From: a virus
Lineage: Duplodnaviria; Heunggongvirae; Uroviricota; Caudoviricetes
Virus record (IMG/VR): IMGVR_UViG_3300032030_000019
DNA: 64,000 bases
Direction: 5' to 3' (one strand)
Below, in pieces: positions 5,259-32,541 of this stretch (positions are counted from its first letter, which is position 1; the number at the start of each line of letters is the position of its first letter). Both the position numbers and the translations under genes were made by a program. The notes beneath the pieces were generated by a model. The model had not been told where the DNA came from and made no database searches. It saw nothing but the letters and a program-made list of their open reading frames with translations.

Positions 5259-5276
5259 CGTAGGAGGGCTGAAAGC

Positions 5277-5633
5277 ATGAAAGTATTCCGTTACGTGGCA
5301 TTTGCGTTAGAGAACTTGGGTGGCAATTCGTCTAATCCTATGAATGATATACTAGCCAAAAACAGACAAAAGGATGAAGAGCGTAAGTATCAAAAGCAAC
5401 TGAAATTCGAAAATGCATTGGATCGTAAGCTCTATCAGCAAGAAATGGAAGATGAATCGAAAGCACAACTTAAGCATGTGGGCGAGATGAACAGACTTCT
5501 TGCTCAGCGTGCTCAACTTACAGGAAATATGGGCGAAGGGATGCCACCACAGGCTAATCCTCAAATGTGGAACTACTATAATCCGTATTATAGCATAAAT
5601 GACCCATATTACAACAATCCATTTTCACAATAA
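5277..5633 (+). CDS. Putative internal head protein
   Basis: Leader MKVFRYVAF-A; AGGAGG SD; low-complexity N/P/Y tail. Confidence 0.65.
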   Translation: MKVFRYVAFALENLGGNSSNPMNDILAKNRQKDEERKYQKQLKFENALDRKLYQQEMEDESKAQLKHVGEMNRLLAQRAQLTGNMGEGMPPQANPQMWNYYNPYYSINDPYYNNPFSQ

Positions 5634-9846: not shown

Positions 9847-10542
9847 ATGTTAAGATTTGATAATGATTATAATCTTCTTTGCTTTGCTAAAACCACACTT
9901 AAACAAGATGGTGCTGATATTGTTAAAGGTGCTAAAGGAGTTGGTAAAAGTGTCGTAAAAGCAGGAAAAGAAATCGGAAAGAACGTTGCGACTGCAGCAA
10001 AGGGTTTCGGACGTGGTTTCTTAAAGGTAGGTAAGCGGGCTGGTGTCGGCTATAACGATTACAAAGACGCAATAGCGAAGCCATACAACGACGCAGAAGC
10101 TAGAAAAGCTAGAAATTCTGACTACAAGAAAAACATGCTTTTAAGAGGTGCTGAAGGCGCTGCTATTGGTGGTATTAGTGGTACAGCTATCGGATATGGT
10201 GTTGGTAAAGCAAAACAGAAGAAAGCTGGACGAACAGCACGTGAGGAAGCTTCAAAAGGACTCAAGAACAAGATCCTGAATGCTCTCGATAAGTCACGAC
10301 TCGATAATATAGAAAATGCTGCTAAACGTAAAGTCAACGTAGGTGCTCATGCTCTTACAGGAGGCGCTATTGGTACTCTTGGTGGTGGAGCTCTTGGACT
10401 TGGTGGTGGTGCAATCGAAACTGGTGCAAAACACGCACGTGCTCTTGCTAAAGCTTACGACGCAGCCCATCCTGGTGTAGATAAAGCAACACGAAAGGCT
10501 GGTATCAAAGAATGGCGAAAAGCAATCAGTGACGCAAAATAA
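9847..10542 (+). CDS. Lys-rich glycine-zipper protein, putative head cargo
   Basis: Leader ending YNLLCF-A; 11-residue KG repeats; GxxxG runs; AREEAS...NIENAAK segment shared with 23819 gene. Confidence 0.7.
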   Translation: MLRFDNDYNLLCFAKTTLKQDGADIVKGAKGVGKSVVKAGKEIGKNVATAAKGFGRGFLKVGKRAGVGYNDYKDAIAKPYNDAEARKARNSDYKKNMLLRGAEGAAIGGISGTAIGYGVGKAKQKKAGRTAREEASKGLKNKILNALDKSRLDNIENAAKRKVNVGAHALTGGAIGTLGGGALGLGGGAIETGAKHARALAKAYDAAHPGVDKATRKAGIKEWRKAISDAK

Positions 10543-11286: not shown

Positions 11287-12312
11287 ATGTTAGATGACGC
11301 AATTAACTTAACGATGCGAGGTTTTGGAAATACAATCACAGACGTTTTGACTGTATCACCAAAAGTATCCTTGCATCTAAAGAACTATATAGCAACTACA
11401 ATGAAAGATGACAAGAAGGAAAATGCGTTGCGATTGTTAGAGGAACTTGAAAAGCAAGCCAGACTCAATGCACATTCGAACAAACATTTCTCTCTTGATA
11501 ACACAAATGGAGATGAAGACGAAATAGACTTCTCAGCTCCATGGGCAATAGACAAAACATGGTTGGTGGCACGAAACTTTAAAATACACCCTATCATGGT
11601 TATTGCACTACTTGTTGCTTTCATTTTTTCATTATTACAAATACCGAACTTAGGCTTACGTATAGGTAATTTATTACGTAATAAGTTTCATTTATCACGT
11701 AAAGCCCAAGTAGCTGTTACAGAAGTATTCAATTTTTTGAGTAAAGTAGCCAAAGACGTAACCCAAGCATTCTCGAATGTAATTAAGTATATGGCTCCCG
11801 TAACTCCAATGTTATCTGTAACGCCCTTCCATGACACCATTATTAACCTATCACAGGATTACAATACCAAAAGTGCATTCAGAAACGCATGTGCAAAGCT
11901 CGATCCATGGGACAAGAAAATTATTGATTCCATGACAACAGGTCTCCCACGTAGTGCTAGTTTTTCACAAAAGGATACCGTGAACTTTGCGCGTATGCCT
12001 TCAGAAGTGAACTATGTGAACTTCGCGCGTATGCCATTTAATCCACAGTTACGTAGTCAACAACAAATGGAACAGGGAGATACTAGCGACATAGATGAAA
12101 TCCTAACGGCTATACGTGTAATTACGCAAATGCTAGCATATCCAGGAATTGGACAGATCGTAATGATTTTTGCGAGTCAGTTTATACCGATCACGCAATT
12201 AACTGTACTGCTTGGTGGAGCACTAGTAGGAGCGGGAGGAGCGTTGGTCACTAAAAGTATTGATTCTGTTCAAAGACTAAGGGACCAAATGGTTGCCTAT
12301 AATTCATTATAA
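11287..12312 (+). CDS. Putative membrane-associated cargo protein (two hydrophobic helical regions)
   Basis: IMVIALLVAFIFSLLQI; C-terminal VLLGGALVGAGGALV; IDFS, SASFS and VNFA twice. Confidence 0.65.
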   Translation: MLDDAINLTMRGFGNTITDVLTVSPKVSLHLKNYIATTMKDDKKENALRLLEELEKQARLNAHSNKHFSLDNTNGDEDEIDFSAPWAIDKTWLVARNFKIHPIMVIALLVAFIFSLLQIPNLGLRIGNLLRNKFHLSRKAQVAVTEVFNFLSKVAKDVTQAFSNVIKYMAPVTPMLSVTPFHDTIINLSQDYNTKSAFRNACAKLDPWDKKIIDSMTTGLPRSASFSQKDTVNFARMPSEVNYVNFARMPFNPQLRSQQQMEQGDTSDIDEILTAIRVITQMLAYPGIGQIVMIFASQFIPITQLTVLLGGALVGAGGALVTKSIDSVQRLRDQMVAYNSL

Positions 12313-12325
12313 GAGGTGATATACC

Positions 12326-12901
12326 ATGTGGAGTCCTGATAGATATCAAAATTTATTACAAAAACAGCAACAAAATTATCTACAAAAGCACACAACAAAC
12401 ATCCGCGACGCAGTATACCAACAGCGACTAAATCCGGATGACTATAATTACACAGGTGGGTCAATTTCAGGAGCCGTTAGTACCGCCGGGCAACTTATAG
12501 GTGAAAACGTAAACCCATTAGCGGGTCAAGCTGTATCGATGCTAGCGGGAAGGCCTGATATCGTAGCTTCAGCAGCTAATACGTTAGGTAATTTAGTTGG
12601 TGGAGATAAAAATCCTGTAGGACGCTTTCTAACAGGTCTCGCTGCAAATTACGAGGCGGATGAACAACAAAAGGGCGATCGTGCTGTAAATGACTACGTA
12701 CGTAAAATCGTAGGTTCATACATCACCGATAACCCAAACGCAAATCCAAACAAAATAAAGTGGCGTGTAATCAGAAATATAAAGAAAGGACGTAACCCAT
12801 ATTACAAATTATACGGGCGTAAACGTCAGGAATACGTTAATATGTCATATGTACCGGCCACACGTAAGGTATACGTATTTGTCCCTTTTAGCAAGACGTA
12901 A
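12326..12901 (+). CDS. Hypothetical G/A-rich protein
   Basis: GAGGTG SD; ends in leader-like KVYVFVPFS. Confidence 0.65.
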   Translation: MWSPDRYQNLLQKQQQNYLQKHTTNIRDAVYQQRLNPDDYNYTGGSISGAVSTAGQLIGENVNPLAGQAVSMLAGRPDIVASAANTLGNLVGGDKNPVGRFLTGLAANYEADEQQKGDRAVNDYVRKIVGSYITDNPNANPNKIKWRVIRNIKKGRNPYYKLYGRKRQEYVNMSYVPATRKVYVFVPFSKT

Positions 12902-12903
12902 AC

Positions 12904-13791
12904 ATGAAAGTATATACATTTTCATACGACATACAGGTTCCCGAAGGAGCTGTAAAAGGAGCATTGGTCGGGGCAGGTGTAGGGACGGTCGCTTCGATCA
13001 TTAAACAAATTAAGAATAAAAAGCTTAATGTAAAGGATGCTCTAAAGAAAGCTGGGGTCGGTGCGTTAGCAGGTGCAGGTGTAGGAGCAGCTTCAAGTGC
13101 GATAGGGGAACATGCTAGACATGAGAAGATGAGAAAGCTCGGGTACAGGGTTGATCACTCAGGCAACGCATACTTCGTAGATAAGAAAGGTAATCCTCAT
13201 AAAGTAGCTATACAGAAAGATGGTGGGGAACTAGCATATGGTGGATATCTGCCAACAGTTCATCCTAATTCTGTGCTCAAAGACAAAAAGGGGAGGCCTC
13301 GTCTAGTTACAGAGCGCCACATGCGTAAGCTTATACATAAACTTCAGGGGATTGATTTGCCTAGAGATGTAGATAAAAATGGAGCAATAGTCATTAACCC
13401 CAAGAAGTATAACTATGATAAAGAAAAAATGGAAGCTGTTATAGGCCACGAACTTGGTCACAAACTCAAAGACAGATCTTCCATAAAACTACGCAAGGGT
13501 AAAATATCTCAAGATGAGTTTCTACGCTTACCACCTAAAGCAAAACAAAAGAGTGAGACAACCGCAGATAAATACGCGGTAAAGCGTGGTGCTAATCCAT
13601 CGCATCTTAATAAAGAAGTTCTCAGGATCACAAAAGAATCACTTGAAAAAGCACATCCAAAATGGGCTAAAGAAACCCCGGAGAACGAGAAGAACAGAGT
13701 AGTACACGAACTCAATAAGCAATATCGTGGTACTTGGCTCGAAGATCAAGCAAGAAAATGGGAAAGTAAGCATCCCGAAGAAACAACCTGA
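12904..13791 (+). CDS. Glycine-zipper plus HExxH zinc metallopeptidase-like protein
   Basis: Leader MKVYTF-S; GALVGAGVG; AVIGHELGHK ... SETTADKYA. Confidence 0.7.
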   Translation: MKVYTFSYDIQVPEGAVKGALVGAGVGTVASIIKQIKNKKLNVKDALKKAGVGALAGAGVGAASSAIGEHARHEKMRKLGYRVDHSGNAYFVDKKGNPHKVAIQKDGGELAYGGYLPTVHPNSVLKDKKGRPRLVTERHMRKLIHKLQGIDLPRDVDKNGAIVINPKKYNYDKEKMEAVIGHELGHKLKDRSSIKLRKGKISQDEFLRLPPKAKQKSETTADKYAVKRGANPSHLNKEVLRITKESLEKAHPKWAKETPENEKNRVVHELNKQYRGTWLEDQARKWESKHPEETT

Positions 13792-15813: not shown

Positions 15814-17163
15814 ATGAGAAACAATAACAACTATGACATTACCGTCAAAGTATGTGATTTTTCGACACCAAGTAAGAGTGCTCATAAAATCATTGACGGC
15901 GCCTTTTTTCAAAACAATGTCCTCGATAGTGCAAAATGGCAAGACAAACTAAAAAGAGGACAAGTACTCGGGTTGTTTACGCACAAAGGTAGGCAACCAC
16001 GAGAACAGATACGAGAAATACCATATGAGGACAATATTGCTCTATCCCCATACCTATGCAATGTAGCAAAGGAAGTATGGAGAGATGGCGATTCCTTATT
16101 CGCAGGACTCGATCTATTTGACAACAGGGAGTATGGAGCTCTCCTGAAAGATATGCTCAAACGAGGCATGAATGTACCTGTGTCCATGGCCGTAAGAGCA
16201 GCGGCAGACATGAATCGATTCTATGTCAAGGATCTTTTAGGCGTAGATTTCACTTTCAAGCCCGATCTAGAGGCCGAAATCGTACGCATAAACTTTAGTG
16301 AGACTGACGACAACTCAAGTAATGATGACGTGTTCTGCTATTTTTCATATTTCCCAGAAGATGATGATGTATATCTTGGAAGTAGATTAAATGTATCAGA
16401 ACCTAAGATCTACGACATGAGTAGACCAACGGATTTTTCTGATAATACTTATGAGATATTCTTACCTCCGGAAAAATACCCACAGCTTGAAGAGTTGAAT
16501 ATTAAATTCAGCAGAGATGAAACTCTTGTAAACGGCATGATGCCTATACGTATCCGTGATGTCGATTCTCTGAATTCAACTCAACGCAACTTCATAACAG
16601 AATTTGATTCTACATTCTTTACTGTCAACAACAATAAAGATAACGGGCCTACGATAGGGCTTACAGAAGATGACGAAGAAGTAGAAACGTTTAGTGACGA
16701 GAAGCTTGAAGAGATATTTTGGAATACATCTGAGATTGATTTTTCACTCCAATTATATCTACAGGAATTAAAGCTGGCTCCGCATCAAGTATTAAAGAAA
16801 CGTATTCTGGAAGTAATCAGATGGGTATCAGCAAACAGTCAAGATAAAGTAGTAAAAGCGAGTCCAACCATAAAATCGTATATTGATACGTATGTATTAA
16901 AGTGGGTACACGACACACTTAACAATCCGACTGAACATTTCAATTTAATGTTGGGTTTACGTTTGATGAATTACAACATCAATCGTACAGACCTGATTGA
17001 TTTACAACGGAATCTAAACCGATGTAAACAAACGTTACTACAGTCAGGATCCATGCAACCTGCTTTACAGACAACCCTTAACCATTCATACAGAAAAGTC
17101 ATTGACGGACTGTATGATTATATCAATGAACAGTGTGCTCGATCTGGGCATCATCTTGTGTAA
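15814..17163 (+). CDS. Prohead maturation protease with long C-terminal extension
   Basis: VLGLFTH (His), VPVSMA (Ser), GVDFTFKPD: gp21/assemblin-type order; extension contains INFS, CYFS, TDFS, IKFS, ETFS, IDFS. Confidence 0.78.
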   Translation: MRNNNNYDITVKVCDFSTPSKSAHKIIDGAFFQNNVLDSAKWQDKLKRGQVLGLFTHKGRQPREQIREIPYEDNIALSPYLCNVAKEVWRDGDSLFAGLDLFDNREYGALLKDMLKRGMNVPVSMAVRAAADMNRFYVKDLLGVDFTFKPDLEAEIVRINFSETDDNSSNDDVFCYFSYFPEDDDVYLGSRLNVSEPKIYDMSRPTDFSDNTYEIFLPPEKYPQLEELNIKFSRDETLVNGMMPIRIRDVDSLNSTQRNFITEFDSTFFTVNNNKDNGPTIGLTEDDEEVETFSDEKLEEIFWNTSEIDFSLQLYLQELKLAPHQVLKKRILEVIRWVSANSQDKVVKASPTIKSYIDTYVLKWVHDTLNNPTEHFNLMLGLRLMNYNINRTDLIDLQRNLNRCKQTLLQSGSMQPALQTTLNHSYRKVIDGLYDYINEQCARSGHHLV

Positions 17164-17175
17164 GAGGTATGCAAT

Positions 17176-18942
17176 ATGACAGCACCGGAAAATATAGAAA
17201 AAGTAGTTCAGCAATATCTTGTGCATGAAAAGAGCGATAAAAAGTTTATTGATGAACTCAAAAAACTCAAAACCTCCCCAATGGAAATCGAGAACCTAGA
17301 GCCGTTTGGTGACCAAATGTTGGGTCAAAAGATCGGCAAGGTTCAAGAAGATATAGATAACAAAAGGCCATATGAGAGGGACCTTACAGACCTAAAAATG
17401 TATATTAATGCTATTTCAAGCGGTAAAAATTTTAGCGAATCAGACAATAGCAAGAAAAATGAAACAGAGGTACGAAACATGAGTACAGACAAAGAACTGA
17501 ATATGGTTTCTGAAGAGAACGTAAACAAGATCAACGAGAAAGTTATGAACATGGAAGGCACCCTCGATAAAGTTGAGGATAAGCTTGACAACCTTGTAGA
17601 GCAACAGAAGAGTATTTTAAAGAACATTGATCCGGAGTCACAGAAGACTACGGATGAGAAAATCAAGGATACACAAGACGGTGTTAAAACACTAGCCGCT
17701 GCATTCTCTGATTTATGTGACTACATAAATTCCGGTTACTACAACTTCGATGGCATGCCTGCTCCTGGTGGTGCTCCGATGCCACCTGCACCCCCTGCTG
17801 GTGCTGCTCCGACTGGTGACCCGTCAGCAATGGCTGCACAAATTGCACAGCAAATGGGATTAATGCCAGGTGCTCCGGGATACAATGAATTCATCACTGG
17901 CTATATGGCTGCTCTAGGTATGCCACCTGCACCTCCCGCTGGTGCTGCTCCGGCTCCGGGCGCTGCTCCGGCTCCGATGAACATGTCAGAGACACCGACT
18001 ATCTCATACTCAGAGTTACATAACGCATTCTTGTCAAGCAATGGTGATATTTATACTTATTCTGCTGATCAGGATGGGTATTTCAATCAGGATGGTGAGC
18101 AGCTTTTATATTCTGAGGAATCAGATGTATTCTATTCAGAAGAGCCAACTCCGGAACCTGAGTATGTAGGCACACTTTTCTCTATAGACGGTACACAAAC
18201 AGATCTGTATGAGCTGGATGATGCACTTTTCTCAGAGAATGGCGATACAGTAATTTACAACGAAGCCGCAAATGCATTCTTCTCAGAGAATGGTGACACC
18301 CTATTCGACTATGAAGCATTCTCGGATATGGGTGGGTTCTTAGAGTTACTTGAAACAGATCCTGCTGGTAACGCCATTTTCTTCTCAACAGAGACAGGTG
18401 ACTACTACTACTATTCTGCAGAGGATAATGTATTGTTCAACGAGGATGAAGTAGCTGAAGCTCAGGCTGAAGGCAGCGACGAAGGCAGCAATGACGGTAG
18501 TGATGAAAGCGAAGGCGGTGATAACGACGACGAGACAGACGTAATCCATGTAGACGGTAGCGATGGTAACAAGATCATCATTATCGACAATGATAATTCA
18601 ATGGATACAAAAGTTGAAGGCGACACTGTAACTATTACTGATGGTGATGGTTTCGATGAATTGGAAGTAGATGAGTGCGATAGCGAGAACGGTGATGCTG
18701 TTTGCCACTCTGTTGTAACAGGTGACGAATATTTCTATTCAGCTCAAGATCACGCTTTCTTTACAACAGACGGCTTCTATGAGACATTCTCACAGTCAAA
18801 CCGTACTACCGAAGATAATCGAAGCGATGCAGCTGTAACAACATTCTCATTCATTGATGACATGGCTACAGTAGATCAGTCTAATTCACAGGCACGATAT
18901 AATGCTCTTAAGAGCTATCTTGATGCCCCCATCCACAGCTAA
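17176..18942 (+). CDS. Prohead scaffold/core protein
   Basis: Follows the protease; coiled coil, P/A hinge, very acidic C-half with many F/Y-S motifs. Confidence 0.72.
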   Translation: MTAPENIEKVVQQYLVHEKSDKKFIDELKKLKTSPMEIENLEPFGDQMLGQKIGKVQEDIDNKRPYERDLTDLKMYINAISSGKNFSESDNSKKNETEVRNMSTDKELNMVSEENVNKINEKVMNMEGTLDKVEDKLDNLVEQQKSILKNIDPESQKTTDEKIKDTQDGVKTLAAAFSDLCDYINSGYYNFDGMPAPGGAPMPPAPPAGAAPTGDPSAMAAQIAQQMGLMPGAPGYNEFITGYMAALGMPPAPPAGAAPAPGAAPAPMNMSETPTISYSELHNAFLSSNGDIYTYSADQDGYFNQDGEQLLYSEESDVFYSEEPTPEPEYVGTLFSIDGTQTDLYELDDALFSENGDTVIYNEAANAFFSENGDTLFDYEAFSDMGGFLELLETDPAGNAIFFSTETGDYYYYSAEDNVLFNEDEVAEAQAEGSDEGSNDGSDESEGGDNDDETDVIHVDGSDGNKIIIIDNDNSMDTKVEGDTVTITDGDGFDELEVDECDSENGDAVCHSVVTGDEYFYSAQDHAFFTTDGFYETFSQSNRTTEDNRSDAAVTTFSFIDDMATVDQSNSQARYNALKSYLDAPIHS

Positions 18943-20077: not shown

Positions 20078-20284
20078 ATGAACTATATAGAGTATGTTAA
20101 TTTTACATTACGTCAGGACGCTCAAAAATATCAGGACGTGCCATCACGTGAGCTCGTACGAAACATTACGCAGGAACTACGTCCACAAACAACGCAGGCA
20201 CCAAGTTCAATAGCCAAAGAAGTAAAGAAGACGTTGCGTGATGACGCCGCAAAAAGGGTATACGTTGGAGGAAATATGTTATGA
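20078..20284 (+). CDS. Small putative internal head protein
   Basis: Leader MNYIEYVNF-T; ATGA overlap with the next gene. Confidence 0.6.
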   Translation: MNYIEYVNFTLRQDAQKYQDVPSRELVRNITQELRPQTTQAPSSIAKEVKKTLRDDAAKRVYVGGNML

Positions 20285-21453
20285 TATACGCACAGCAACC
20301 GGCATATGCGCCACAACCACAGGTAGCAATAGCTCCACAACCACAACCTATCATGCAGGGATACGCACCACAAATGGCACCTCGGAATAACGGTTGGTGG
20401 AAATGGGCTCTCGCTGCAGGTTTAGGTGGCTTAGGTGTAGGTGGTGTACTTCTCGGCAATAGAATGGCTGAGAATGACAAAGAAGAAATTAAAAAGAATA
20501 ATAGACGAAAATGGATGCCAAGTTTTGATATGGATCCATTAACAATGACTTCCGTGATCACGCAATTACCTCGGTTTGCGATGAATACGCTCGGAATGGT
20601 AGACTCTATCAGAGATGCTGCTCATGGTCATAAAACGAAGAAATCTTTGGATGATGCTAAGAAACTGAATGAGGATTTAGCTTTTAAGTTCCGATATCTA
20701 AAGAAGGGTAGTAGAAATCCAGCAGAAGCTAAAAAGATGCTTGATGAGATTAAAGCTAAGAAACAGGAAGATATAGTAAGCCCCTTAATCATGGATCGAT
20801 TACAGCGTGCATCTAAAGGAACATGGAGTGATGACACATTCTCACAGGTAAGATCTACAGGCTACTATGATCGATACAAGGATTATAACTTTAATATACC
20901 TATGGCAGTACAACCACAGGTAGCAGCAGCCCCACAACCACAACCAGTAATGCAAGGGTATGCTCCTTCTGTATATCAACCTGTACAACAATACTACGCT
21001 CCTCCATCTCCAGGTAGAAACCTGTCTCGATTAGCATTAGGTCTTTCAGCACTAGCCGCATTAGGTGGCGGTGCTTACGCTCTTAAGAAAGCTAACGAAA
21101 ACAATGAGGCATTGGCTAAGAGTAGAGAGCCGAGCTTCATGAACAAGATTAATGTGGCCGATTTAATTTCACCGTTAATGGGTGCCACAAACATTGCCGC
21201 TGATAACCTGGATATTGTTAACAAACACAGAACAAAACGTATTAATGCAATTCGTGAGGATATCGACAAGAACGTCAAGAGTATTATTCGTGATGGTGAA
21301 AAATACAAAGGGAAGAAGAAAGAAGACGATCTCGGTCATATGTATAAATCCAAGGATATTGCTAGACAGGTTGTAAGTGCATTTGGTATGTTATCACCAT
21401 TTGCTAAGAAGTTTGTACAGCATCAAATGGATAAACACGACAACGAAGGATGA
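20281..21453 (+). CDS. Internally duplicated two-module protein, each module with a PQ-rich linker and a Gly/Ala hydrophobic helix
   Basis: PQVAIAPQPQPIMQGYAP and PQVAAAPQPQPVMQGYAP; modules separated by DTFS and DYNFN. Confidence 0.75.
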   Translation: MIYAQQPAYAPQPQVAIAPQPQPIMQGYAPQMAPRNNGWWKWALAAGLGGLGVGGVLLGNRMAENDKEEIKKNNRRKWMPSFDMDPLTMTSVITQLPRFAMNTLGMVDSIRDAAHGHKTKKSLDDAKKLNEDLAFKFRYLKKGSRNPAEAKKMLDEIKAKKQEDIVSPLIMDRLQRASKGTWSDDTFSQVRSTGYYDRYKDYNFNIPMAVQPQVAAAPQPQPVMQGYAPSVYQPVQQYYAPPSPGRNLSRLALGLSALAALGGGAYALKKANENNEALAKSREPSFMNKINVADLISPLMGATNIAADNLDIVNKHRTKRINAIREDIDKNVKSIIRDGEKYKGKKKEDDLGHMYKSKDIARQVVSAFGMLSPFAKKFVQHQMDKHDNEG

Positions 21454-21463
21454 GGATAGAGCC

Positions 21464-21952
21464 ATGAATATTCAGATAGGTGATATGATAGGTATCAGAA
21501 AGAGCTTTAATGTTATCTTTGGTATATACGAAGGCAAAGGTAAGATTATCTATTTTGACAAAACCCTCAAGGGCGGTGTAGTTAAGGAAGCTGATATCGG
21601 TCAAATAGCAGGGGGATTAGGATCTCCATTTATAGACACCAAAGAAGAACCCTTGTTTGAACCTGCTGAAATTGTAGCACGGGCCAAATCCATGATAGGT
21701 GTAACTCCCGTACCAAAATTCATAACAAGCTCTGAATCTTTTGCAAGTTGGGCTAAAACAGGGTGTCCTCGAAGTACAATGAAACAAGTAGGTCGAGATA
21801 TGAGCATAGGACTCTTGAATGCTTTTTTACAGAAGCCCGTAAAGGAGTATGTGGATTTAACACGTGAGGATCTTTTAGCTAATCGACCTACAAGGGATGC
21901 TAAATTCAAACAAGATGTACGGTATATATACAATAAATTTAACAGAAAATAA
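21464..21952 (+). CDS. LRAT-like (permuted NlpC/P60) fold, catalytic His and Cys apparently lost
   Basis: IGDMIGI...VIFGIYEGKGKIIY...IVARAKSMIG...TSSESFASWAKTG; start moved to ATG 21464. Confidence 0.6.
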   Translation: MNIQIGDMIGIRKSFNVIFGIYEGKGKIIYFDKTLKGGVVKEADIGQIAGGLGSPFIDTKEEPLFEPAEIVARAKSMIGVTPVPKFITSSESFASWAKTGCPRSTMKQVGRDMSIGLLNAFLQKPVKEYVDLTREDLLANRPTRDAKFKQDVRYIYNKFNRK

Positions 21953-21963
21953 CGGGTACTACT

Positions 21964-23799
21964 ATGCAAAATTACTATAATGATTACTACCAATTTGGTG
22001 TTTGGGATGGTGTCAAAAATACATGGAATACCATCAGAGCGATACCTAAGATTGCAAGTGGTATCGGAGCTATCAAGGACTTTGGCAAAACAGGTGATTT
22101 CAATAAATTGGTAGACTGGGGTAAAGAGAACTTCAAAGGGAACCCCATGATTGATAAAGCCGTGAGTTGGGCCAAAGATAATAAGGCATTACTAGGTGGT
22201 TTAGCGACCGCTGGTGTTGGTGCATTAGCAAATCACTTTGCCAATAAGAACAATCAAAAACAAGTCATGATGGGACTGATGCCAGGTATGGGCGGTGGCA
22301 TGATGCCAATGATGAATCCATACATGGGTATGATGCCAATGATGAATCCGTATATGGGCATGGGAATGATGCCAGGTATGGGCGGTGGTTACTATACTGT
22401 AACACGTGGTGGTGGAAATAACGGCAATGGGTTCTTTGGTAACTTAATGCAAGCAGCGACACCTCTTCTAGCCGCTTATGGAATCAATAAGTGGATGAAT
22501 GGTCAACAAAAGACTGAGGAAGAGAAAAATGAAAGTGATATAGAAGGAAGATTATCAAAGCTATACCAGGCCAATGCACAAAATGCAACAAATATCAAGG
22601 CAGAATATGATAAACTTGCTCAAACACTGGGAGAAAAAGGTGCTATTGCTACGCTTGAACAAAAATACAAAAATGGATATACAGTCACAGAAAACCCAGA
22701 CGACGTACAAGAACGTTTAAATAAATTATATCAAGCTAATCCTAAAAACTCACAGGCAATCAAGTCCGAATTTGACAGTCTAGTATCATCATTAGGTGAA
22801 AAGGGTGCGATAACAACTCTTGAGAACAAATATAAAGGTGGGTATTACGAAGAGAAAGAAGAAACGACTCCTCAAACAGCAGCCGATAAAATACGTAGTA
22901 CATTCGGACAGAAACGCTCGTGGTGGGATATAGCTGGAAAAATCAGAGACCGTAATGCTAAAACACGTTACGACCAAGCTATATCAGGCATGACAGAAGA
23001 TCAACGAGACGCCTTTCAGAAACATATTGTCAAGAACATGGAACAAGGTAATAGTTGGCGAAGCGCCATTAATGCACAGGTAGCCACTATAAACAGACAA
23101 GGCGGTGGTCAAAAAGTAAACAGAAAAAAGAATCAAGAACAAACTACAACAGCGCCATCCACCCAAGCTATAGCCAACGCCACTACGGATAGTCAGGATC
23201 CAACTAAGAATCCGTATGCAGATTTCTCCTACTCACCCCTTGACGAAATACAAGGACGTTTCAAAGACGTGTACTTTGGTTCGTGGGACTTCTTAACTCC
23301 TGAAACAAAAAAAAAGGACGTCAAAGCCTTAGCAGCCCGAATTAAGCCAGGTGATGGCATAAGTGTAAACAAAGGACCATACGCACACTACGCGATTTAC
23401 ATAGGTGACGGCAAAGTAATTGAACATACAGGGGTTGATAGCAAATATCAACGTGGTGGAAACAATAAATCACAAATGGGTAGTTTAAAGGATTTTATGG
23501 CTGGTCGTGGTAATGAGGCGGTAACGATTCATAAATCTAGAAAATTTAGCCCAGAAACCGTAGTACAGCGAGCCAAGAATGCATATAATTTAAAAGATTT
23601 ACCATATGATGCAGCAAAGAACAATTGTGAACATTTTATGGAAGAAATCTTAAATGGTGAACATAAATCACATCAAGTTAAAAACATACAGAATCTTGTA
23701 CGCGGAATCGGCTATATGGGGAAAGAAGGATTAAAGAATTACGACAAAGACATAGATAAAAGTGCTAAAAAATACAGTAAGATGTACAAGCACATTTAA
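21964..23799 (+). CDS. Multimodule protein with C-terminal LRAT-like domain
   Basis: Leader ending DYYQF-G; Met/Gly repeats; two ~47-aa repeats; KPGD...YAHYAIYIGDG...YDAAKNNCEHF. Confidence 0.8.
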   Translation: MQNYYNDYYQFGVWDGVKNTWNTIRAIPKIASGIGAIKDFGKTGDFNKLVDWGKENFKGNPMIDKAVSWAKDNKALLGGLATAGVGALANHFANKNNQKQVMMGLMPGMGGGMMPMMNPYMGMMPMMNPYMGMGMMPGMGGGYYTVTRGGGNNGNGFFGNLMQAATPLLAAYGINKWMNGQQKTEEEKNESDIEGRLSKLYQANAQNATNIKAEYDKLAQTLGEKGAIATLEQKYKNGYTVTENPDDVQERLNKLYQANPKNSQAIKSEFDSLVSSLGEKGAITTLENKYKGGYYEEKEETTPQTAADKIRSTFGQKRSWWDIAGKIRDRNAKTRYDQAISGMTEDQRDAFQKHIVKNMEQGNSWRSAINAQVATINRQGGGQKVNRKKNQEQTTTAPSTQAIANATTDSQDPTKNPYADFSYSPLDEIQGRFKDVYFGSWDFLTPETKKKDVKALAARIKPGDGISVNKGPYAHYAIYIGDGKVIEHTGVDSKYQRGGNNKSQMGSLKDFMAGRGNEAVTIHKSRKFSPETVVQRAKNAYNLKDLPYDAAKNNCEHFMEEILNGEHKSHQVKNIQNLVRGIGYMGKEGLKNYDKDIDKSAKKYSKMYKHI

Positions 23800-23818
23800 C
23801 ACAGTGAGGAACACAAAA

Positions 23819-25222
23819 ATGCTTTCATTAAGTGACACACAAAAATCTTACCTCAAACACGCCGGTATAGGTGCTGGGGCTGGTACTGTAGTAGGTGGCG
23901 TAGCAGGGCATCTTACAGGTAGAGCACGTCAAGCCATGTTAGCAAAGAAGGCACGCGAAGAAGCCTCAAGAGGTGTTTTTAATAAAGCCCTCAACGCAAT
24001 CAATGGTAATCGATTACGCAATATAGAAAATGCAGCCAAAAAGAAAATCAATCTAACTGAACATACTATGGTAGGTGCAGGTTTAGGCGCTCTTGGTGGG
24101 GCCGCTGGTAGTGTGGGAACGAAGTACTTCCGTGATAAGGCGGCTCAAAAGAAACAGATGGAAGCCGATGCTGAAGCACGTGCGAAAGAAATAGCCGACC
24201 TACGATGGAAGAGTTCAAAAGAATACAAAGATCTCCAAAAACAGCTAGCTAAAGACGAAAAGGAACGCACAAAGATAATAAAGAAGCGCGCCAAGAATAT
24301 AGCTATGAAAAAGGCGGAGCGTTTACAAGCAGAAGCTGACATAGCATACGAAAAGGCGATGGAAGAAAAAGCACGTCAGGCTAGAGTAAAGCGAATAGGT
24401 GAGCTCAGAAAAATGGCAAAAGCAAAACAAGAAAAAGCTAAAAAACCAAGCTCATTTGGTCTTTCAGGTGGCAATCCAAACAGCGAACGTAATCTCCAAG
24501 GTGCCGTCATACGTACACACTCCTACGTAGGCTTCTCAAAAGAAGATAAAATCCGACGTGGGAATAAAGTTGCTGATGAGTACGTACGTGAGTTACGAAA
24601 TTACAAACGTAGAATCTCAGCACGTTTGAATACACATCCGTTGAAAGGCGCAGCTATAGGTTCATTGGTAGGTGCAGGATTAGCTTCCTCTAAGACAGCT
24701 ATTTCGCACGAACGTCAGGTACGTGAGCTCGCTAAGAAGTTACGTAAACAAAATCCTGAACTTGAGTACGATGAATCAATTAAGAAAGCACGTGCTGTAT
24801 TAGGTTCATTGCGTCATAAATTAAAAGACTCAGCCATTAAGGGTGCTGTTATTGGTGGTACTGTTGGTGGTTTAGGAACGGCTGCTACAAACGCTGTTAA
24901 GAACCATATGGCGGATAAGGCTTCATGGGACAATTACACGAACGGGGATCATTTGAAGGGCCCACTGAGTCGTTTTAGCGATTCGATGAAGATGCTGAAA
25001 GCTGATGAGAAGCACACAGATAAAGCCGCTAAAGAAGCACGTAAAGTAAGAGAACTTGCGAATAAACTAGGCGCGCAAGAAATGAAACGTGCTGAACGTA
25101 AAGCACGTATGAACGGACTTATGGATCGTATGACAAAATCTAAGTACGAACAAAAGTATGACGCACTTAGAAAGTACCAACTTGAACGTGAGCAAGACGC
25201 ATTAAATATGTTGGGGTATTAA
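23819..25222 (+). CDS. Lys-rich protein with four glycine-zipper segments
   Basis: Start moved to ATG 23819 (GAGGA SD); N-half paralogous to 9847 gene; internal SYVGFS. Confidence 0.7.
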   Translation: MLSLSDTQKSYLKHAGIGAGAGTVVGGVAGHLTGRARQAMLAKKAREEASRGVFNKALNAINGNRLRNIENAAKKKINLTEHTMVGAGLGALGGAAGSVGTKYFRDKAAQKKQMEADAEARAKEIADLRWKSSKEYKDLQKQLAKDEKERTKIIKKRAKNIAMKKAERLQAEADIAYEKAMEEKARQARVKRIGELRKMAKAKQEKAKKPSSFGLSGGNPNSERNLQGAVIRTHSYVGFSKEDKIRRGNKVADEYVRELRNYKRRISARLNTHPLKGAAIGSLVGAGLASSKTAISHERQVRELAKKLRKQNPELEYDESIKKARAVLGSLRHKLKDSAIKGAVIGGTVGGLGTAATNAVKNHMADKASWDNYTNGDHLKGPLSRFSDSMKMLKADEKHTDKAAKEARKVRELANKLGAQEMKRAERKARMNGLMDRMTKSKYEQKYDALRKYQLEREQDALNMLGY

Positions 25223-25225
25223 CGT

Positions 25226-25762
25226 ATGTATAACTTTAGTGACTCACGTTTTGACGAATTTATTCACGAATTAGGTAAACGTAATAAACACGTATCTAAA
25301 GAAGGTCAACGTTTGCTTGATAAGATTAAACCAGGTGACGGACTTGAAGTTGATCGTGGATTTTATCGCCATTACGGAGTGTACTTAGGCAACAACGTTA
25401 TACTCGAATTAAACGGAAGCACGTCAGGTAAAAACAAAAGCAGACTAATTGATGTGGATACGTTTCTACGAGATCAGAAAGCAAGTGACGTAACCGCACA
25501 TGTGTCACATAAGTTTACACTTTCGCAAATACGTGAACGTGCAAAGAACGCCATAAATCATGTCAAACTTCCTTATAACTTAGTGACGAACAATTGCGAA
25601 CATTTCATGGAAGAAATACTTAATGGCAAACATGAGTCACATCAGGTCAAAAGTGTGGGTACGTACGCGGGTACAATCTCACGTGGGATCGGACGTCATT
25701 GGGATAGTTTGTACAAGAAGAACTCGGACAAGAAAAGGAAGTTCTATAGGAGCTTCTTATAA
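25226..25762 (+). CDS. Stand-alone LRAT-like domain protein
   Basis: Leader MYNF-S; KPGD...YRHYGVYLG...YNLVTNNCEHF. Confidence 0.8.
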   Translation: MYNFSDSRFDEFIHELGKRNKHVSKEGQRLLDKIKPGDGLEVDRGFYRHYGVYLGNNVILELNGSTSGKNKSRLIDVDTFLRDQKASDVTAHVSHKFTLSQIRERAKNAINHVKLPYNLVTNNCEHFMEEILNGKHESHQVKSVGTYAGTISRGIGRHWDSLYKKNSDKKRKFYRSFL

Positions 25763-25792
25763 GTTATCAAATTTTAACACATATATTTCCTC

Positions 25793-25820
25793 TTGTAATA
25801 TAGGCACGACGTTGTATTAT
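25793..25820 (+). promoter_or_regulatory. Possible sigma70-type promoter
   Basis: TTGTAA (25793-25798), 16 bp spacer, TATTAT (25815-25820). Confidence 0.35.
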
Positions 25821-25846
25821 ATATATACGGGGGGGGGCAAAAAAAA

Positions 25847-26212
25847 ATGAATTACGTAGAATATCAATTTAGCATTTACAACCAGCCAACAGTGCCGTTT
25901 TCTCTTGTGAATTTTGGATTTAATCGTCTATTACAAAGTGCGGCACGTCGTGGAGATTTTCAAAAAGTTTCTAAATTAAGAAGCTCACAGATGTATAGAG
26001 AAGGGAAAACTCTGGAGGATATGAGAAAACTAAAGAGAGATATTTGGAAAACATTACCGATTGATTCTCCAGAACGTGGCACTCTCAAGACGATGTTTAG
26101 GGCCGCTCGAAATACATTTGACAGACAGGATGATAAAAACGCCGCAGCGACTAGTGCTGCTTACAGAGAAGCTTCATATAATAATATGAAGCGTGCAATG
26201 GGAGAGCTGTAA
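25847..26212 (+). CDS. Basic putative internal head protein
   Basis: Leader MNYVEYQF-S; preceded by G9-C-A9. Confidence 0.7.
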   Translation: MNYVEYQFSIYNQPTVPFSLVNFGFNRLLQSAARRGDFQKVSKLRSSQMYREGKTLEDMRKLKRDIWKTLPIDSPERGTLKTMFRAARNTFDRQDDKNAAATSAAYREASYNNMKRAMGEL

Positions 26213-26291
26213 CAATAAACCACAACTAACAATAAACCACAATAAAAATATTCCTCCTCACATATATATATGTATATGGGGGGGGGGTATT

Positions 26292-26597
26292 ATGAATTTT
26301 TTAGAATATAACTTTACAAGATGGGGAAAATACATGACATTAGCAGCCAAAGCTGTAAAGAATAACGACCCCGAAGGTTATCGCCGATGGGCAACAAAAG
26401 GATTAGTTAAAGAAGATAGGATTTACAATAAGGGAGACCTCAAGAATCTGCCCGCTAGCAAAAGACTAGCTGCTTATAGGCAACATGATAAAGATCTGAA
26501 TGCTGTAGAAAAAGCAAATAATGTATTTCAAGCACATCCTAATCCTAAGCGATTTAACAATTTTGAAATCACTCCTCATCCATCTTACAACCCATAA
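26292..26597 (+). CDS. Basic putative internal head protein
   Basis: Start moved to ATG 26292; leader MNFLEYNF-T; preceded by G10. Confidence 0.65.
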   Translation: MNFLEYNFTRWGKYMTLAAKAVKNNDPEGYRRWATKGLVKEDRIYNKGDLKNLPASKRLAAYRQHDKDLNAVEKANNVFQAHPNPKRFNNFEITPHPSYNP

Positions 26598-26615
26598 AAA
26601 GCATAGGAGCCACAT

Positions 26616-28463
26616 ATGGTAGCGGTAAATGCAATACTAGACAAGATGTCTTCGCAAGAGACGTTAGCACTACTTGCGACAGCACTTGGGTACAAAGCAA
26701 TGCCCGTAGATATCGAGACGTTTTTAAATGACCCATACTACTTAGGCAACTCATGTGGTATAAACCCACTAACAGGACAATCCGCTATATTCCCAAAGTG
26801 GCACGAAGCTTTACACCAAATATACCCCGACGCAATTCGCACATCAACGTTTGTAGCGAACGCTGGGGCAATTGGTACAGGTAAGTCGACCGTAGGTAAG
26901 ATTATTTTAATGTATGATATATACAAAATAACCATGCTTAAAAACGCGGCGGCTTACTTTGGTTTGATTCAAAAGTACTTTCATTTTGTTATCTTTAACT
27001 TAACAAAGCTTACCGCTGAAAAGATGGTTAAAGAGATGAAGGCATGGATGGATGCAAGCCCGTATTTTCAGGAACAATTCGCTGACCCTGAATCAGTTAT
27101 ACATTGGATATCACTAGATGATGCCTCACGTATGGACGATATCATCTCAAACGACGTAATCTCAATTATATACTCAGAGATGAACTTCGTAAGGAACTTG
27201 GAACGTGGTATTCAACTTATAGACCAGGGTATAAGCCGTATTGAATCACGTTTTCAAAAGGGTTTCGGACTATTCAATCACATAATCCTTGACTCTTCTG
27301 ACACAAGCATCGAGGCGCCTGTCCCACAGTTTTTGATACATCACCCGCGTGGACGGGAAACGTTGGTCTTCAAGTTTGCAATTTGGGATGTTAAACCTGA
27401 AATGTACTTCCATATGTCTGATCCTATAACAGGTAAGAAGACGTTTACGGTATACAAAGGCGATAGTGAAACCCCACCCTGTATAGTTGATGATACAACG
27501 AAAACAGAAGACATGGATCCTGATAGATTCATGGAGGTACCACTAGAACTTAAAACAGACTTTGAAGCCAATATAGAGTTACAGCTAAATGAAAAAGCGG
27601 GTGTAACTGTAGAAACGACAACACAGTATTTTAAGGCAACGAATGTTATACCTCACATGACGTATGACATGATGATGCCTGAGATAATTACAATAGATTT
27701 TTTCGGAGAAGAATCATATATACCATATTTTGAAGATCTTATAAATAAACTACCGCATGACCGATGTCTATTTGGTAGTGTGGATTTAGGGTTATCTCAC
27801 GATAGAGCAGGCTTTTCATTAGGGTATATTGAGAATTTAAATCCAATAGATAATGATGGAGTTGTAAGTTTTGATCCGAAGGTGGTTGTACCTTGTGCAG
27901 TAGCATTTAGTAGGTACGTAGGGCAAGAAACAAGTATAGATAAGATTACGCAATTAATAGTATGGATTCACTCGCAGATACCTTTTTACAAATTCACGAT
28001 GGATACATACCAGTCAGCGGCAATCAAACAAAAGCTGATAAACACAGAAATCAATGCGGAATTCTTGTCTGTAGATCGAACAGTACAGCATCATAAAATA
28101 GCAAAACAAATGATTTACCAAGGTAAGGTCGTATTACCTAAGTCAACCCTTCTAAAAAATGAATTGATTAATTTGGTAGATCTTGGTAAAAAGATTGATC
28201 ACCATGCGACTAAAAATGCAAATGGTGATATAGGTAGTGATTCAAAAGACGTTGCCGATAGTGTAGTACGTCTGTTATCAACCATGCATAATGCAACGGC
28301 AGACGCTATGGAACCACCTCTTATCTCAAGGAGTGCGATCCAAAAGTATAACGAAGAGCTGATATCTGAATGGGTCGATACACAACGTAAACAAAAGTTT
28401 GATATGCTATACGGAACAAATTATGGCCTAACAGCTGAATTACATAATCTAGCTTACAATTAA
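26616..28463 (+). CDS. terL: Terminase large subunit
   Basis: Walker A GAIGTGKST; Walker B region HIILDSS; nuclease GSVDLGLSHD and DHH...SKDVADSV. Confidence 0.92.
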   Translation: MVAVNAILDKMSSQETLALLATALGYKAMPVDIETFLNDPYYLGNSCGINPLTGQSAIFPKWHEALHQIYPDAIRTSTFVANAGAIGTGKSTVGKIILMYDIYKITMLKNAAAYFGLIQKYFHFVIFNLTKLTAEKMVKEMKAWMDASPYFQEQFADPESVIHWISLDDASRMDDIISNDVISIIYSEMNFVRNLERGIQLIDQGISRIESRFQKGFGLFNHIILDSSDTSIEAPVPQFLIHHPRGRETLVFKFAIWDVKPEMYFHMSDPITGKKTFTVYKGDSETPPCIVDDTTKTEDMDPDRFMEVPLELKTDFEANIELQLNEKAGVTVETTTQYFKATNVIPHMTYDMMMPEIITIDFFGEESYIPYFEDLINKLPHDRCLFGSVDLGLSHDRAGFSLGYIENLNPIDNDGVVSFDPKVVVPCAVAFSRYVGQETSIDKITQLIVWIHSQIPFYKFTMDTYQSAAIKQKLINTEINAEFLSVDRTVQHHKIAKQMIYQGKVVLPKSTLLKNELINLVDLGKKIDHHATKNANGDIGSDSKDVADSVVRLLSTMHNATADAMEPPLISRSAIQKYNEELISEWVDTQRKQKFDMLYGTNYGLTAELHNLAYN

Positions 28464-28477
28464 CGAGGGACCTCACA

Positions 28478-29998
28478 ATGAGCAAGATTTACGCACCATA
28501 CAATTTTGGTTTAAAGGACGCTGTTGTAAAAGGTGCTACAACCGCTGCCATTAATAACTTAGCGAAGAATGGTCTAGAAGACACGTTAAGAAAAGCGGAT
28601 AGAATAGGTCGTGTAGTCAACGCCGGTGCAAAAGCAATACATGGTGTCAAGACTGCGGCTAAAACAGTAGGACACGGAGTAGCGACAGCGGGAAAGGCCG
28701 TTGGACATGGAGTAGCAACCGCAGGTAAAGCCGTAGGCCATGGTGTAGCTGCTACAGGCAAGGCAATTGGTAATGTTGGGAAGAATATGTGGTATGGTGG
28801 TGGTGATACGTTAGCCAAAACAGCCTTACGTGCAACCGTCGTTAACCCGATTAAAGAAACAGTCGCAGGTGTAGGTGGTGCCGCTCGAGGTTTTTGGGAT
28901 AAATTCAAACAAGGTGATATTCTCGGAAGCATTGGTGGTGCAGTTAAGGGGGCTTGGCAGTCTTCTCGATACCAAGCTAAAGAAAACCATTTACTACATG
29001 CCTTAAAGAACAAATTTGGCGATAAATACAGTCCCCAGGAACTCGAAGCTATAGCAAAACAACAGGTTACGAATGTAGCGGATGCACGTGGGGTAACAAT
29101 GGGACCTATGTGGATGAATAAAATGAGAAATCAGACAATGGCTTATCAAGGTATGCAAGGTAGCCCGTTTGCAGGATATACTCCATACGGTGGCTATTTT
29201 CAGTTCTCACGGCCAACGAATTTCTCTTATGGGGTTCAGGTAGCTTCAAACGCCATAAAAGGTCTGAAAATAGGCGTAGGCACAGGCTTAGTTGCAGGGG
29301 GCACAGGACTAGCATCAAAAAAGATTGATGCTAAAACAGCGGCCCTTCTCGCAGGCGGTACGTCACTACTTGGTGCTGGAATAGGCGCCGCTAAAGGCGC
29401 CATAAGTGAGCACCGACGTCACCGCAAAGCACGTAAGGCCGGACTTGATACAGACGTGAATGGAATAGCTACGATAAAGGATAAGGATGGCAATGAGTAT
29501 AAGATTTCGCTTCAACCTGATACAGGACGTGTAAACGGTGGTGCGTATATGCAGGAACGTAACCTTGAACACCACGCAAAAAGTCTAAAGAACAGGCTTA
29601 ACTATTATAAAAAGACAAAAGTAGATCTTCCACGTGGGGTAAAAGGGAAAGACATGATCCTGATTAATCCCAAAACAGCTGACTACGACGCAGATGCCAT
29701 TAAAGGCATTACGTTACATGAAGTAGGCCATAAACAAACGCAAGATCTTATGCATAAACATGATAAGCAATACCAGAACATGCGACGTGAGGAAGAAGCC
29801 GTTGCTGACAAGTATGCGATTGAACATGGTGCCGATCCTAAGGTAATGTTAGCACTCTTGGAAAAACAAACACGTAGGGACTATAGTAGGAACCCAAAAT
29901 TCGCGAACTTACCCAAAGAGAAACAGGACGCAATCGTACGTAGAGCCATACAAAACTATCGTGGAGATTATCTGCATAAACAGGCCGAGAAAGATTGA
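28478..29998 (+). CDS. Two-module protein: 11-mer amphipathic repeat module plus glycine-zipper/HExxH peptidase module
   Basis: Leader ending APYNF-G; KAVGHGVATAG repeats; junction YFQFS...TNFS; LHEVGHK...EAVADKYA paralogous to 12904 gene. Confidence 0.78.
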   Translation: MSKIYAPYNFGLKDAVVKGATTAAINNLAKNGLEDTLRKADRIGRVVNAGAKAIHGVKTAAKTVGHGVATAGKAVGHGVATAGKAVGHGVAATGKAIGNVGKNMWYGGGDTLAKTALRATVVNPIKETVAGVGGAARGFWDKFKQGDILGSIGGAVKGAWQSSRYQAKENHLLHALKNKFGDKYSPQELEAIAKQQVTNVADARGVTMGPMWMNKMRNQTMAYQGMQGSPFAGYTPYGGYFQFSRPTNFSYGVQVASNAIKGLKIGVGTGLVAGGTGLASKKIDAKTAALLAGGTSLLGAGIGAAKGAISEHRRHRKARKAGLDTDVNGIATIKDKDGNEYKISLQPDTGRVNGGAYMQERNLEHHAKSLKNRLNYYKKTKVDLPRGVKGKDMILINPKTADYDADAIKGITLHEVGHKQTQDLMHKHDKQYQNMRREEEAVADKYAIEHGADPKVMLALLEKQTRRDYSRNPKFANLPKEKQDAIVRRAIQNYRGDYLHKQAEKD

Positions 29999-32169: not shown

Positions 32170-32541
32170 ATGAAGATATACACATACGTAGGTTTTAATG
32201 TTGACAAAAAGAAAGTATCTAAAAAGGACGACAAAGAGCTATCATGGGATAAAGGTTCGCGACGTGTGCTAACTGATGCGACAATCGGATTAGGTGTAGG
32301 CGGGGTCGTAGGCGGGATTGCGACGGCTATACGTTTTAGAAAAATGGTAAAACAATTAATGAAAGTCAACCCGAATTTAACCTTGGAACAGGCTAAGGAT
32401 ATTGCACGTAAAAAGTACAGTATTGGTGAGGGAATTGCTTCAGGAATGTCAGCAGGGTCAACGTTAGGTGGATTGGTAGGATACACGAAAAATGAGATTC
32501 AATCCACAAAATACATTCATAATCATAAAAAGGGAAAATAA
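32170..32541 (+). CDS. Glycine-zipper putative internal head protein
   Basis: Start moved to ATG 32170; leader MKIYTYVGF-N; two GxxxG helices. Confidence 0.65.
   Translation: MKIYTYVGFNVDKKKVSKKDDKELSWDKGSRRVLTDATIGLGVGGVVGGIATAIRFRKMVKQLMKVNPNLTLEQAKDIARKKYSIGEGIASGMSAGSTLGGLVGYTKNEIQSTKYIHNHKKGK

Follow-up and report, generated by a model that had tools for sequence, protein, structure and literature searches.

We analyzed a 64,000-nucleotide stretch of viral DNA (IMG/VR record IMGVR_UViG_3300032030_000019; hereafter the window) that represents the structural-gene module of a very divergent, uncultivated large myovirus. The plus strand holds every long open reading frame (ORF) of the window, and the terminase (26616) and tail sheath (32560) were recognisable; genes are designated here by their first position. 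Fifteen proteins of the window, otherwise unrelated and encoded mainly in the head-gene region, begin with a leader of 4–12 residues that ends in Phe and is followed by a small residue. The pattern of this tag is an aromatic residue, any residue, sometimes one more, then Phe and a small residue, mostly Ser. Our analysis focused on four genes that carry the same tag internally, between two modules. An earlier note, made from the letters alone, had described these four as viral-style polyproteins that are cut into separate effectors inside the prohead, and to which new cargo could be added by in-frame fusion. All four are open frames at the coordinates below (for 23819 an ATG start was preferred over the GTG at 23762); a slash marks the bond proposed to be cut.

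20281–21453, plus strand: 390 amino acids; two repeated modules, each with a PQ-rich stretch, a hydrophobic Gly-rich helix and a charged tail; no N-terminal leader; junction YKDYNF/NI, Phe F204 (codon 20890–20892).
21964–23799, plus strand: 611 amino acids; leader, Met/Gly-rich repeat-bearing N-terminal module (residues 12–421), junction NPYADF/SY with Phe F421 (codon 23224–23226), LRAT-type C-terminal module.
23819–25222, plus strand: 467 amino acids; two glycine-zipper modules with a long charged helix region and the junction HSYVGF/SK between them, Phe F239 (codon 24533–24535); no clear N-terminal leader.
28478–29998, plus strand: 506 amino acids; leader, Gly/Ala/Lys-rich repeat N-terminal module, low-complexity linker, junction SRPTNF/SY with Phe F249 (codon 29222–29224), Gly-zipper hairpin plus HExxH metallopeptidase module.

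Genes that encode one module alone were also found in the window.

12904–13791, plus strand: 295 amino acids; stand-alone paralogue of the C-terminal module of 28478; six-residue leader MKVYTF/S.
25226–25762, plus strand: 178 amino acids; stand-alone LRAT-type enzyme (predicted); four-residue leader MYNF/S.
9847–10542, plus strand: 231 amino acids; stand-alone glycine-zipper protein, paralogue of the first module of 23819.
32170–32541, plus strand: 123 amino acids; stand-alone protein with leader MKIYTYVGF/N; probable paralogue of the second module of 23819.

Metagenomic relatives were retrieved through a terminase protein cluster search, and their gene neighbourhoods were compared with the window.

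L001 and L008: terminase 69% identical; syntenic with the window.
L005: terminase 69% identical.
L003: terminase 58% identical.
L007: terminase 44% identical.
L006: terminase 37% identical.
L013: terminase 34% identical.
L009: located via the HExxH module; sheath 54% identical.
L011 and L012: near-identical strain of the window phage.

Pairwise alignment of the modules, as the earlier note had proposed, confirmed homology for 28478 with 12904, for 21964 with 25226, and between the two halves of 20281. Residues 249–505 of 28478 matched residues 6–285 of 12904 (BLASTP E 3e-30), and the alignment started exactly at F-S-Y in both proteins. That is, the second half of 28478 corresponds to 12904 from F-S onward, and both continue to an HExxH motif. 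The orthologue of 28478 in L001 is also fused (53% identity); its linker is shorter and divergent, and F-S-Y-G-V-Q-V is identical. Locus L009 instead carries two genes separated by a 14-nt spacer: L009_256, a 246-amino-acid N-terminal module with its own leader, and L009_1011, a 399-amino-acid protein whose leader ends in NF/S. The latter protein runs in frame into a further unrelated module after an internal KVYSYVNF/G, which equals a complete leader minus its Met; this extra C-terminal module had no detectable relative among the loci compared. In L005 the HExxH module stands alone (MQNF/S) at the same locus, downstream of the terminase.

Full-length 28478 as a query returned no homologue, low-complexity words swamping the candidates, and a profile of the HExxH module was used in its place. 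A search of 1.84 billion representative proteins with this profile yielded only 12 relatives, and each full-length relative started the module directly after F/S. In an alignment of nine homologues, with identities down to 26%, residues F6, S7 and Y8 of 12904 were invariant, as were H182, E183, H186 and E218, which places F-S-Y on a par with HExxH. An AlphaFold2 (AF2) model of 12904 (predicted local distance difference test, pLDDT, 78.6) showed a disordered leader, a long glycine-zipper helical hairpin resembling a membrane hairpin (residues 11–78), and a remainder with moderate likeness to M48 peptidases (BepA, Z 6.0; ZMPSTE24, Z 5.6; 3c37, Z 5.2). The Pfam M48 match to the HExxH module was weak (1.1e-4), and Foldseek found no PDB structure similar to the model at an E value of 0.001 or lower.

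The fused orthologue in L001 (L001_11870) bears on a first alternative, namely that internal translation starts in nested genes yield the downstream modules with no proteolysis. Its junction (L001:12560–12600) keeps an in-frame Met, the first residue of a perfect leader (MNYG), and GAGG lies 9 nt upstream; this could be an internal start or the scar of a recent fusion. A Met also lies behind a G-rich stretch in 28478, at residue 208, but this Met is 41 residues upstream of the junction, and the junctions of 20281, 21964 and 23819 have no in-frame Met close before them. Internal starts are plausible only for L001_11870, and we regard them as a very improbable explanation of the fused genes.

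The LRAT modules gave a similar result. Residues 451–609 of 21964 matched residues 25–175 of 25226 (E 1e-34), and Pfam LRAT (PF04970) was found at residues 459–567 of 21964 (7e-17, 62.3 bits) and in 25226 (4.7e-16, 59.6 bits; cut-off 24.3). Both proteins contain the conserved His of the HYG box and the Cys of NCEHF. The claimed kinship of the two LRAT domains was therefore borne out; the match of YADF-SYSPLDE with MYNF-SDSRFDE that had been drawn by eye lies upstream of the significant BLAST alignment and was visible only in a MAFFT alignment. In L001 the two modules of 21964 are encoded by adjacent genes with an ATGA overlap (6172/7578): a 469-amino-acid N-terminal module (L001_6172) and a 184-amino-acid LRAT module with its own leader. 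Homology of the former ends at residue 416 of 21964, the split falls directly before the junction, and L001_6172 carries an extra 85-residue tail, which argues that 21964 did not arise by simple loss of a stop codon. A search with the LRAT region for further fused forms returned only the query and the near-identical strain.

Two further observations concern the LRAT genes. The near-identical strain is otherwise fused, and an A-run frameshift after the junction region (L011:5600–5800; window 23290–23330) leaves ORFs of 455 amino acids and 121 amino acids (LRAT); this frameshift is likely a sequencing error, coverage being only 2.3x. A third LRAT-like gene (window 21464–21952; 162 amino acids) is leaderless and conserved in L001. 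Its catalytic Cys is replaced by Ser and its His box is lost, and judged by these residues the product is probably an inactive or repurposed LRAT paralogue.

The two halves of 20281 matched each other (BLASTP E 4e-6; phmmer 5e-9). This protein is an internal duplication; the earlier note had read it as two PQ/hydrophobic-helix modules parted by DYNF-N. The orthologue in L001 (52% identity) keeps the junction as YYDRY.D.NF/N. Results for 23819 were mixed. The first module matched stand-alone 9847 (E 6e-17), with further stand-alone relatives in L001, L008 and L010. The second module matched 32170 weakly (BLASTP 4.8e-5 in a small database; hhalign probability 79%, E 1.6e-5); in this alignment residue 1 of 32170 falls on residue 231 of 23819, and TYVGF of the leader is placed opposite SYVGF of the junction. 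Another weak match to the second module was L001_15119. Pfam Gly-zipper_Omp fell slightly below its cut-off for 23819. The earlier note had seen two glycine-zipper halves parted at SYVGF-S and had named no stand-alone relative of either; the likeness of the halves to each other was weak (E 0.005).

We scored the tag with a matrix built from the 15 N-terminal leaders and applied it to the 689 internal Phe. Leave-one-out scores were 5.9–12.8 bits for 13 of the 15 leaders, and leaders recurred in relatives L001, L003, L005 and L009. Phe was the only invariant leader residue. Leader codons varied (TAT/TAC, TTT/TTC); therefore, conservation is at the protein level. Each of the four junction Phe was the top internal Phe of its own protein; F204 of 20281 scored 12.4 bits and ranked first among the 10 Phe of that protein. 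Overall ranks among the 689 were 4 for F204, 25 for F421 (21964), 16 for F239 (23819) and 7 for F249 (28478). In the orthologues of the window and L001 the junction Phe was kept, while the linkers before it diverged and varied in length.

Tag-like sites were concentrated in proteins of the head region (encoded before the sheath gene). Internal hits of at least 6 bits numbered 15 there versus 4.8 expected, compared to 8 versus 6.9 in the tail region. FS dipeptides showed the same trend (head region, 58 versus 20.9 expected, or 2.8-fold; tail region, 20 versus 25.5), and F-S was the sole over-represented Phe-x dipeptide, in the head region only. The excess fell in the following proteins: a scaffold-like protein (17176; 9 versus 2.1), the candidate head protease (15814; 7 versus 1.6) and exon 1 of the capsid gene (6 versus 1.3).

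15814–17163, plus strand: candidate prohead (head maturation) protease, encoded immediately behind the portal; conserved N-terminal domain (about residues 1–165), variable F-S-rich linker, conserved C-terminal domain.
17176–18942, plus strand: acidic scaffold-like protein, dense in F-S and F-D sites.

Three sites at the capsid N-terminus were conserved between the window and L003, and in the L003 scaffold homologue a small residue followed Phe in 18 of 24 cases (p 0.008). The variable linker of 15814 was flanked by conserved NF/SE and [DN]F/SLQ.

In several ORFs that lie directly upstream of a leader-bearing gene, the last few codons before the stop are preceded by a leader-like motif (window 12326–12901 and 21464–21952; L001:6172–7581; L010:935–1591; L007:11456–12007 and 5160–5531). 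In the window this applied to 3 of 56 ORFs versus 0.8 expected, and two of the window cases were not conserved in L001/L008. We considered these terminal motifs as marks of former joints and left the idea as weak; they may be recombination scars between leader-coding stretches, or chance.

Structural comparison related 15814 to known head proteases. The ESM Atlas model of residues 5–170 matched clusters dominated by Peptidase_S77/S80 (template modeling score, TM, 0.72–0.75 by query; language-model feature score 0.94–0.95), and H57 and S124 were invariant in four homologues. The PHROG 'head maturation protease' match was faint, Pfam gave nothing for 15814, and a PDB profile search returned chance hits only. 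On the strength of the model, 15814 is a probable T4/phiKZ-type (S77/S80) head protease.

Read from the sequences, these data are best explained if the four genes encode two-module accessory proteins of the head-gene cluster, with each module an independent evolutionary unit that starts with the tag. At the start of a gene the tag would form a leader of 4–12 residues, and at an in-frame fusion it would form the joint. We consider it somewhat probable that the tag is a head-protease recognition site cut after Phe, that N-terminal tags serve as propeptides or addresses, and that internal tags allow a pair of units to be carried as a single precursor and parted in the prohead. The protease 15814 would recognise the tag, cut after its Phe inside the prohead, and thereby remove leaders and separate fused modules; its further substrates would be the scaffold, which it would degrade, the capsid N-terminus, which it would trim, and its own linker. 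We tentatively assign cutting in the prohead to 15814 because the motif is common to the scaffold, the protease linker, the capsid N-terminus and the leaders, and because of the likeness of 15814 to head proteases of the T4/phiKZ type. Once released, the modules would remain in the head and exit with the DNA. The glycine-zipper hairpins, M48-like metallopeptidase and LRAT-type Cys hydrolases appear suited to breaching a cell envelope, and the module set as a whole resembles ejection proteins of that kind. The evolutionary part of the original description was supported by the comparison with related phages that the earlier note had proposed: modules were indeed fused, split and recombined at the motif, and a further module was added in frame (L009_1011). 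The term 'viral-style polyprotein' was too strong for two-module proteins, and 20281 and 23819 are leaderless.

Several observations weigh against cleavage of the tag by 15814. The junctions of 21964 (5.7 bits) and 23819 (6.6 bits) scored lower than most true leaders, and the lack of an N-terminal leader in 20281 and 23819 leaves their route into the head unexplained. Invariance of F-S-Y among HExxH modules could reflect a role in the mature module. The Atlas model of 15814 had only medium confidence (pLDDT 0.56), our own AF2 model of its N-terminal domain (4 sequences) reached a pLDDT of 35, and the known S77/S80 relatives have Glu rather than Phe before the cleaved bond (PMC10052503). The motif is missing from the joint of one fusion in a relative, L008_5581. 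Lastly, the 376-amino-acid product of 48130–49260 has the leader MIKEYKYRDF/N (leave-one-out score 9.1 bits) and is encoded amid tail or baseplate genes, beyond the reach of a protease confined to the prohead.

The fusion in L008 fits a second alternative, that the fused genes are uncut relics: the tag would be an N-terminal assembly, packaging or folding signal carried along in gene fusion, and the products would be intact two-domain proteins. Genes in these phages are tightly packed or overlapping, as at the ATGA in L001 and the 14-nt spacer in L009, and small indels can fuse such neighbours. In addition, the N-terminal peptide of the 80alpha scaffold is required for assembly, and its cutting is dispensable (PMC5744158). 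Against relics, the junction Phe is conserved in diverged orthologues amid variable linkers, 21964 is not explained by simple stop-codon loss, and the F-S sites of the scaffold, the linker of the protease and the N-terminus of the capsid protein, being dense and conserved, look more like sites of degradation than relics. We judge this alternative unlikely.

The tag on 48130 would be accounted for by a cytoplasmic enzyme, which leads to a third alternative, that another protease does the cutting. This could be a host Prp-type cysteine protease, which cuts F/A or F/S after short N-terminal extensions, or the HExxH- or LRAT-type peptidase domains of the cargo itself. Prp (C108), known from L27 and from phage 80alpha (PMC5744158, PMC9405229), offers a clear likeness: a short N-terminal extension with Phe as its last residue is cleaved off in front of a small residue on non-homologous phage proteins. 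It removes 13–14 N-terminal residues, between F and A, from the 80alpha capsid and scaffold proteins, and its motif is also present on non-homologous phage proteins including a tail protein (PMC5744158). Prp also occurs without a long L27 in many spirochaetes, including Treponema (PMC9405229). However, only Phe and the small residue after it agree between the leaders and the Prp consensus ML..[DN]LQ[FL]F/A[SH]KK (PMC9405229); upstream of Phe the two differ. Phage 80alpha lacks a head protease of its own, whereas this phage has a candidate with conserved sites in its linker; internal or multiple sites are not known for Prp, and a scaffold with many internal sites is what one expects of a head protease rather than of Prp. 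A Pfam scan of 44 window proteins revealed no Prp-like domain. Self-processing by zincin domains has been proposed by Iyer et al. (PMC5512222), but most leader-bearing proteins of the window have no peptidase domain of their own. On balance, cutting by an enzyme other than the head protease seems quite unlikely.

Processing by 15814 would have a close parallel in T4. Internal proteins IPI, IPII, IPIII and Alt carry a capsid-targeting sequence and are processed by gp21 (PMC3012670, PMC9026906); the targeting sequence is all that the internal proteins have in common, and they too change quickly between relatives (PMC3012670). The likeness lies in unrelated, fast-evolving accessory proteins that share only an N-terminal leader of about 10 residues, and in the S77-like fold predicted for 15814, which is related to that of gp21. 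In T4 the last residues of the leader form a motif at which the head protease also cuts core and capsid proteins, and here the leader motif recurs in the scaffold, the protease linker and the capsid N-terminus. The P1 residue would be Phe in the window; in T4 it is Glu. Glu was absent from most window leaders, and neither a hydrophobic-x-Glu motif nor any consistent conserved x-x-Glu site of the T4 kind was found among them. The leader is also used internally here, as a joint between modules; the proteins of the two systems are not homologous.

Phages phiKZ, 201phi2-1 and SPN3US offer a comparison in the S80 group (gp175, gp245; PMC10052503, PMC5694885). These are large myoviruses with many head and ejection proteins, and the C-terminal part of their protease is removed by self-cleavage, with multiple motif copies in propeptides; we count these features as likenesses. 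The SPN3US protease cleaves propeptides off at a short motif and also processes itself (PMC10052503). It differs in its A-x-E motif, and the reported cleavages, save for C-terminal self-cleavage of the protease, release N-terminal propeptides that are mostly no longer detected in particles. Here, both halves look like functional modules and are also encoded as separate genes.

Polyvalent proteins (Iyer et al. 2017, PMC5512222) likewise combine several effector domains in one polypeptide encoded beside virion genes, and the same domains occur alone or recombined. The organisation found here is of this type, with two-domain proteins beside virion genes and the same domains alone or in other combinations (28478, 21964, L009, L005). 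A zincin-type HExxH domain is frequent in polyvalent proteins, for which processing into separate products has been proposed; the HExxH domain in the window gave a weak M48-like signal. Polyvalent proteins differ in that they are usually far larger (2–15 domains), that they are nucleic-acid-directed, and that their cutting is attributed to peptidase domains within them. A defined junction motif common to leaders, scaffold and capsid has not been described for them. We found no publication describing a head protease that cuts after Phe, and none on phage cargo fusions joined at head-protease sites or on the motif of the window. Judged from the sequences, the features that set the present system apart from known ones would be the proposed Phe specificity, the leader used as an in-frame joint, and the occurrence of both halves as separate genes.

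Leaders in the more distant relatives took other forms. The form Y-x-Y-x(x)-F was found in the window, L001, L003, L005 and L009. Locus L007 (3041–11997) uses M-T-[DE]-V-x-L-[IV]-x-F on four genes, and internal copies of this variant numbered 2 versus 0.002 expected. In L013 (599–15207) and L006 (12790–19644) leaders read K/N-N-F/S. Because leaders are lineage-specific and L007 has internal copies to match, the tag is a property of the whole clade, with internal copies following the version of the lineage. Variation by lineage suggests co-evolution of the tag with its reader. The accessory gene set was very different between relatives whose core genes stay conserved.

The relatives thus lead to a wider picture of a clade of uncultivated gut or rumen myoviruses (terminase identity down to about 34%) in which a protease of T4/phiKZ fold switched to Phe. 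One tag would address, release and concatenate fast-changing injected proteins, in-frame fusion or exchange at the tag would bring in new cargo, and the tag would co-evolve with the lineage as Y-x-Y-x-F, T-E-V-x-L-I-x-F and K-N-F. This picture is tentative; we are nearly evenly divided on it and lean slightly toward doubt. The clade is remote from cultured phages: terminase identity to the nearest of them was only 25–30%, 22 kb of the window had no DNA-level match by megablast in 50,697 phage records, and the HExxH and LRAT modules had none by tblastn in the same records. Terminase pattern scans of viral_contigs and of JGI metagenome contigs found no relative.

If the tag is an address-and-cut signal, the virion-packaged, injected proteome of this large group of uncultivated gut or rumen phages would be predictable from sequence alone. 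Evolution of such arsenals would then proceed through fusion, splitting and exchange of modules at a protease site, and the head protease would be specific for Phe, unlike its relatives in T4 and phiKZ, which are specific for Glu. A short transferable tag for loading foreign proteins into a capsid and releasing them there could be of practical use, like the T4 capsid-targeting sequence. The modules probably act as membrane-inserting glycine zippers, a metallopeptidase and LRAT-type hydrolases, functions that are relevant to the passage of phages through the host envelope.

Beyond the four genes of the earlier note, one further candidate for an internal tag was found.

11287–12312, plus strand: 341 amino acids; duplicated VNF/ARMP junction (junction Phe codon 12022–12024) before a hydrophobic Gly-zipper C-terminal module.

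This junction was the best internal site of its protein and ranked 12 overall. Its F/A.MPFN is conserved in L008_2852; the junctions of both 20281 and 11287 are conserved in L001/L008.

Two observations fall outside the fused genes. A ferritin/rubrerythrin-like protein (window 4602–5258; Pfam Ferritin 2.9e-9) is encoded amid the head genes and contains LQYTF/A at residues 22–27; by its sequence it could be a packaged protein that handles iron or oxidants. Inteins (Pfam Intein_splicing) were found in the terminase large subunits of several relatives (L005:3267–5561, L007:6890–9520, and proteins P0004, P0011, P0015, P0036 and P0043), and the terminase of the window itself is intein-free.

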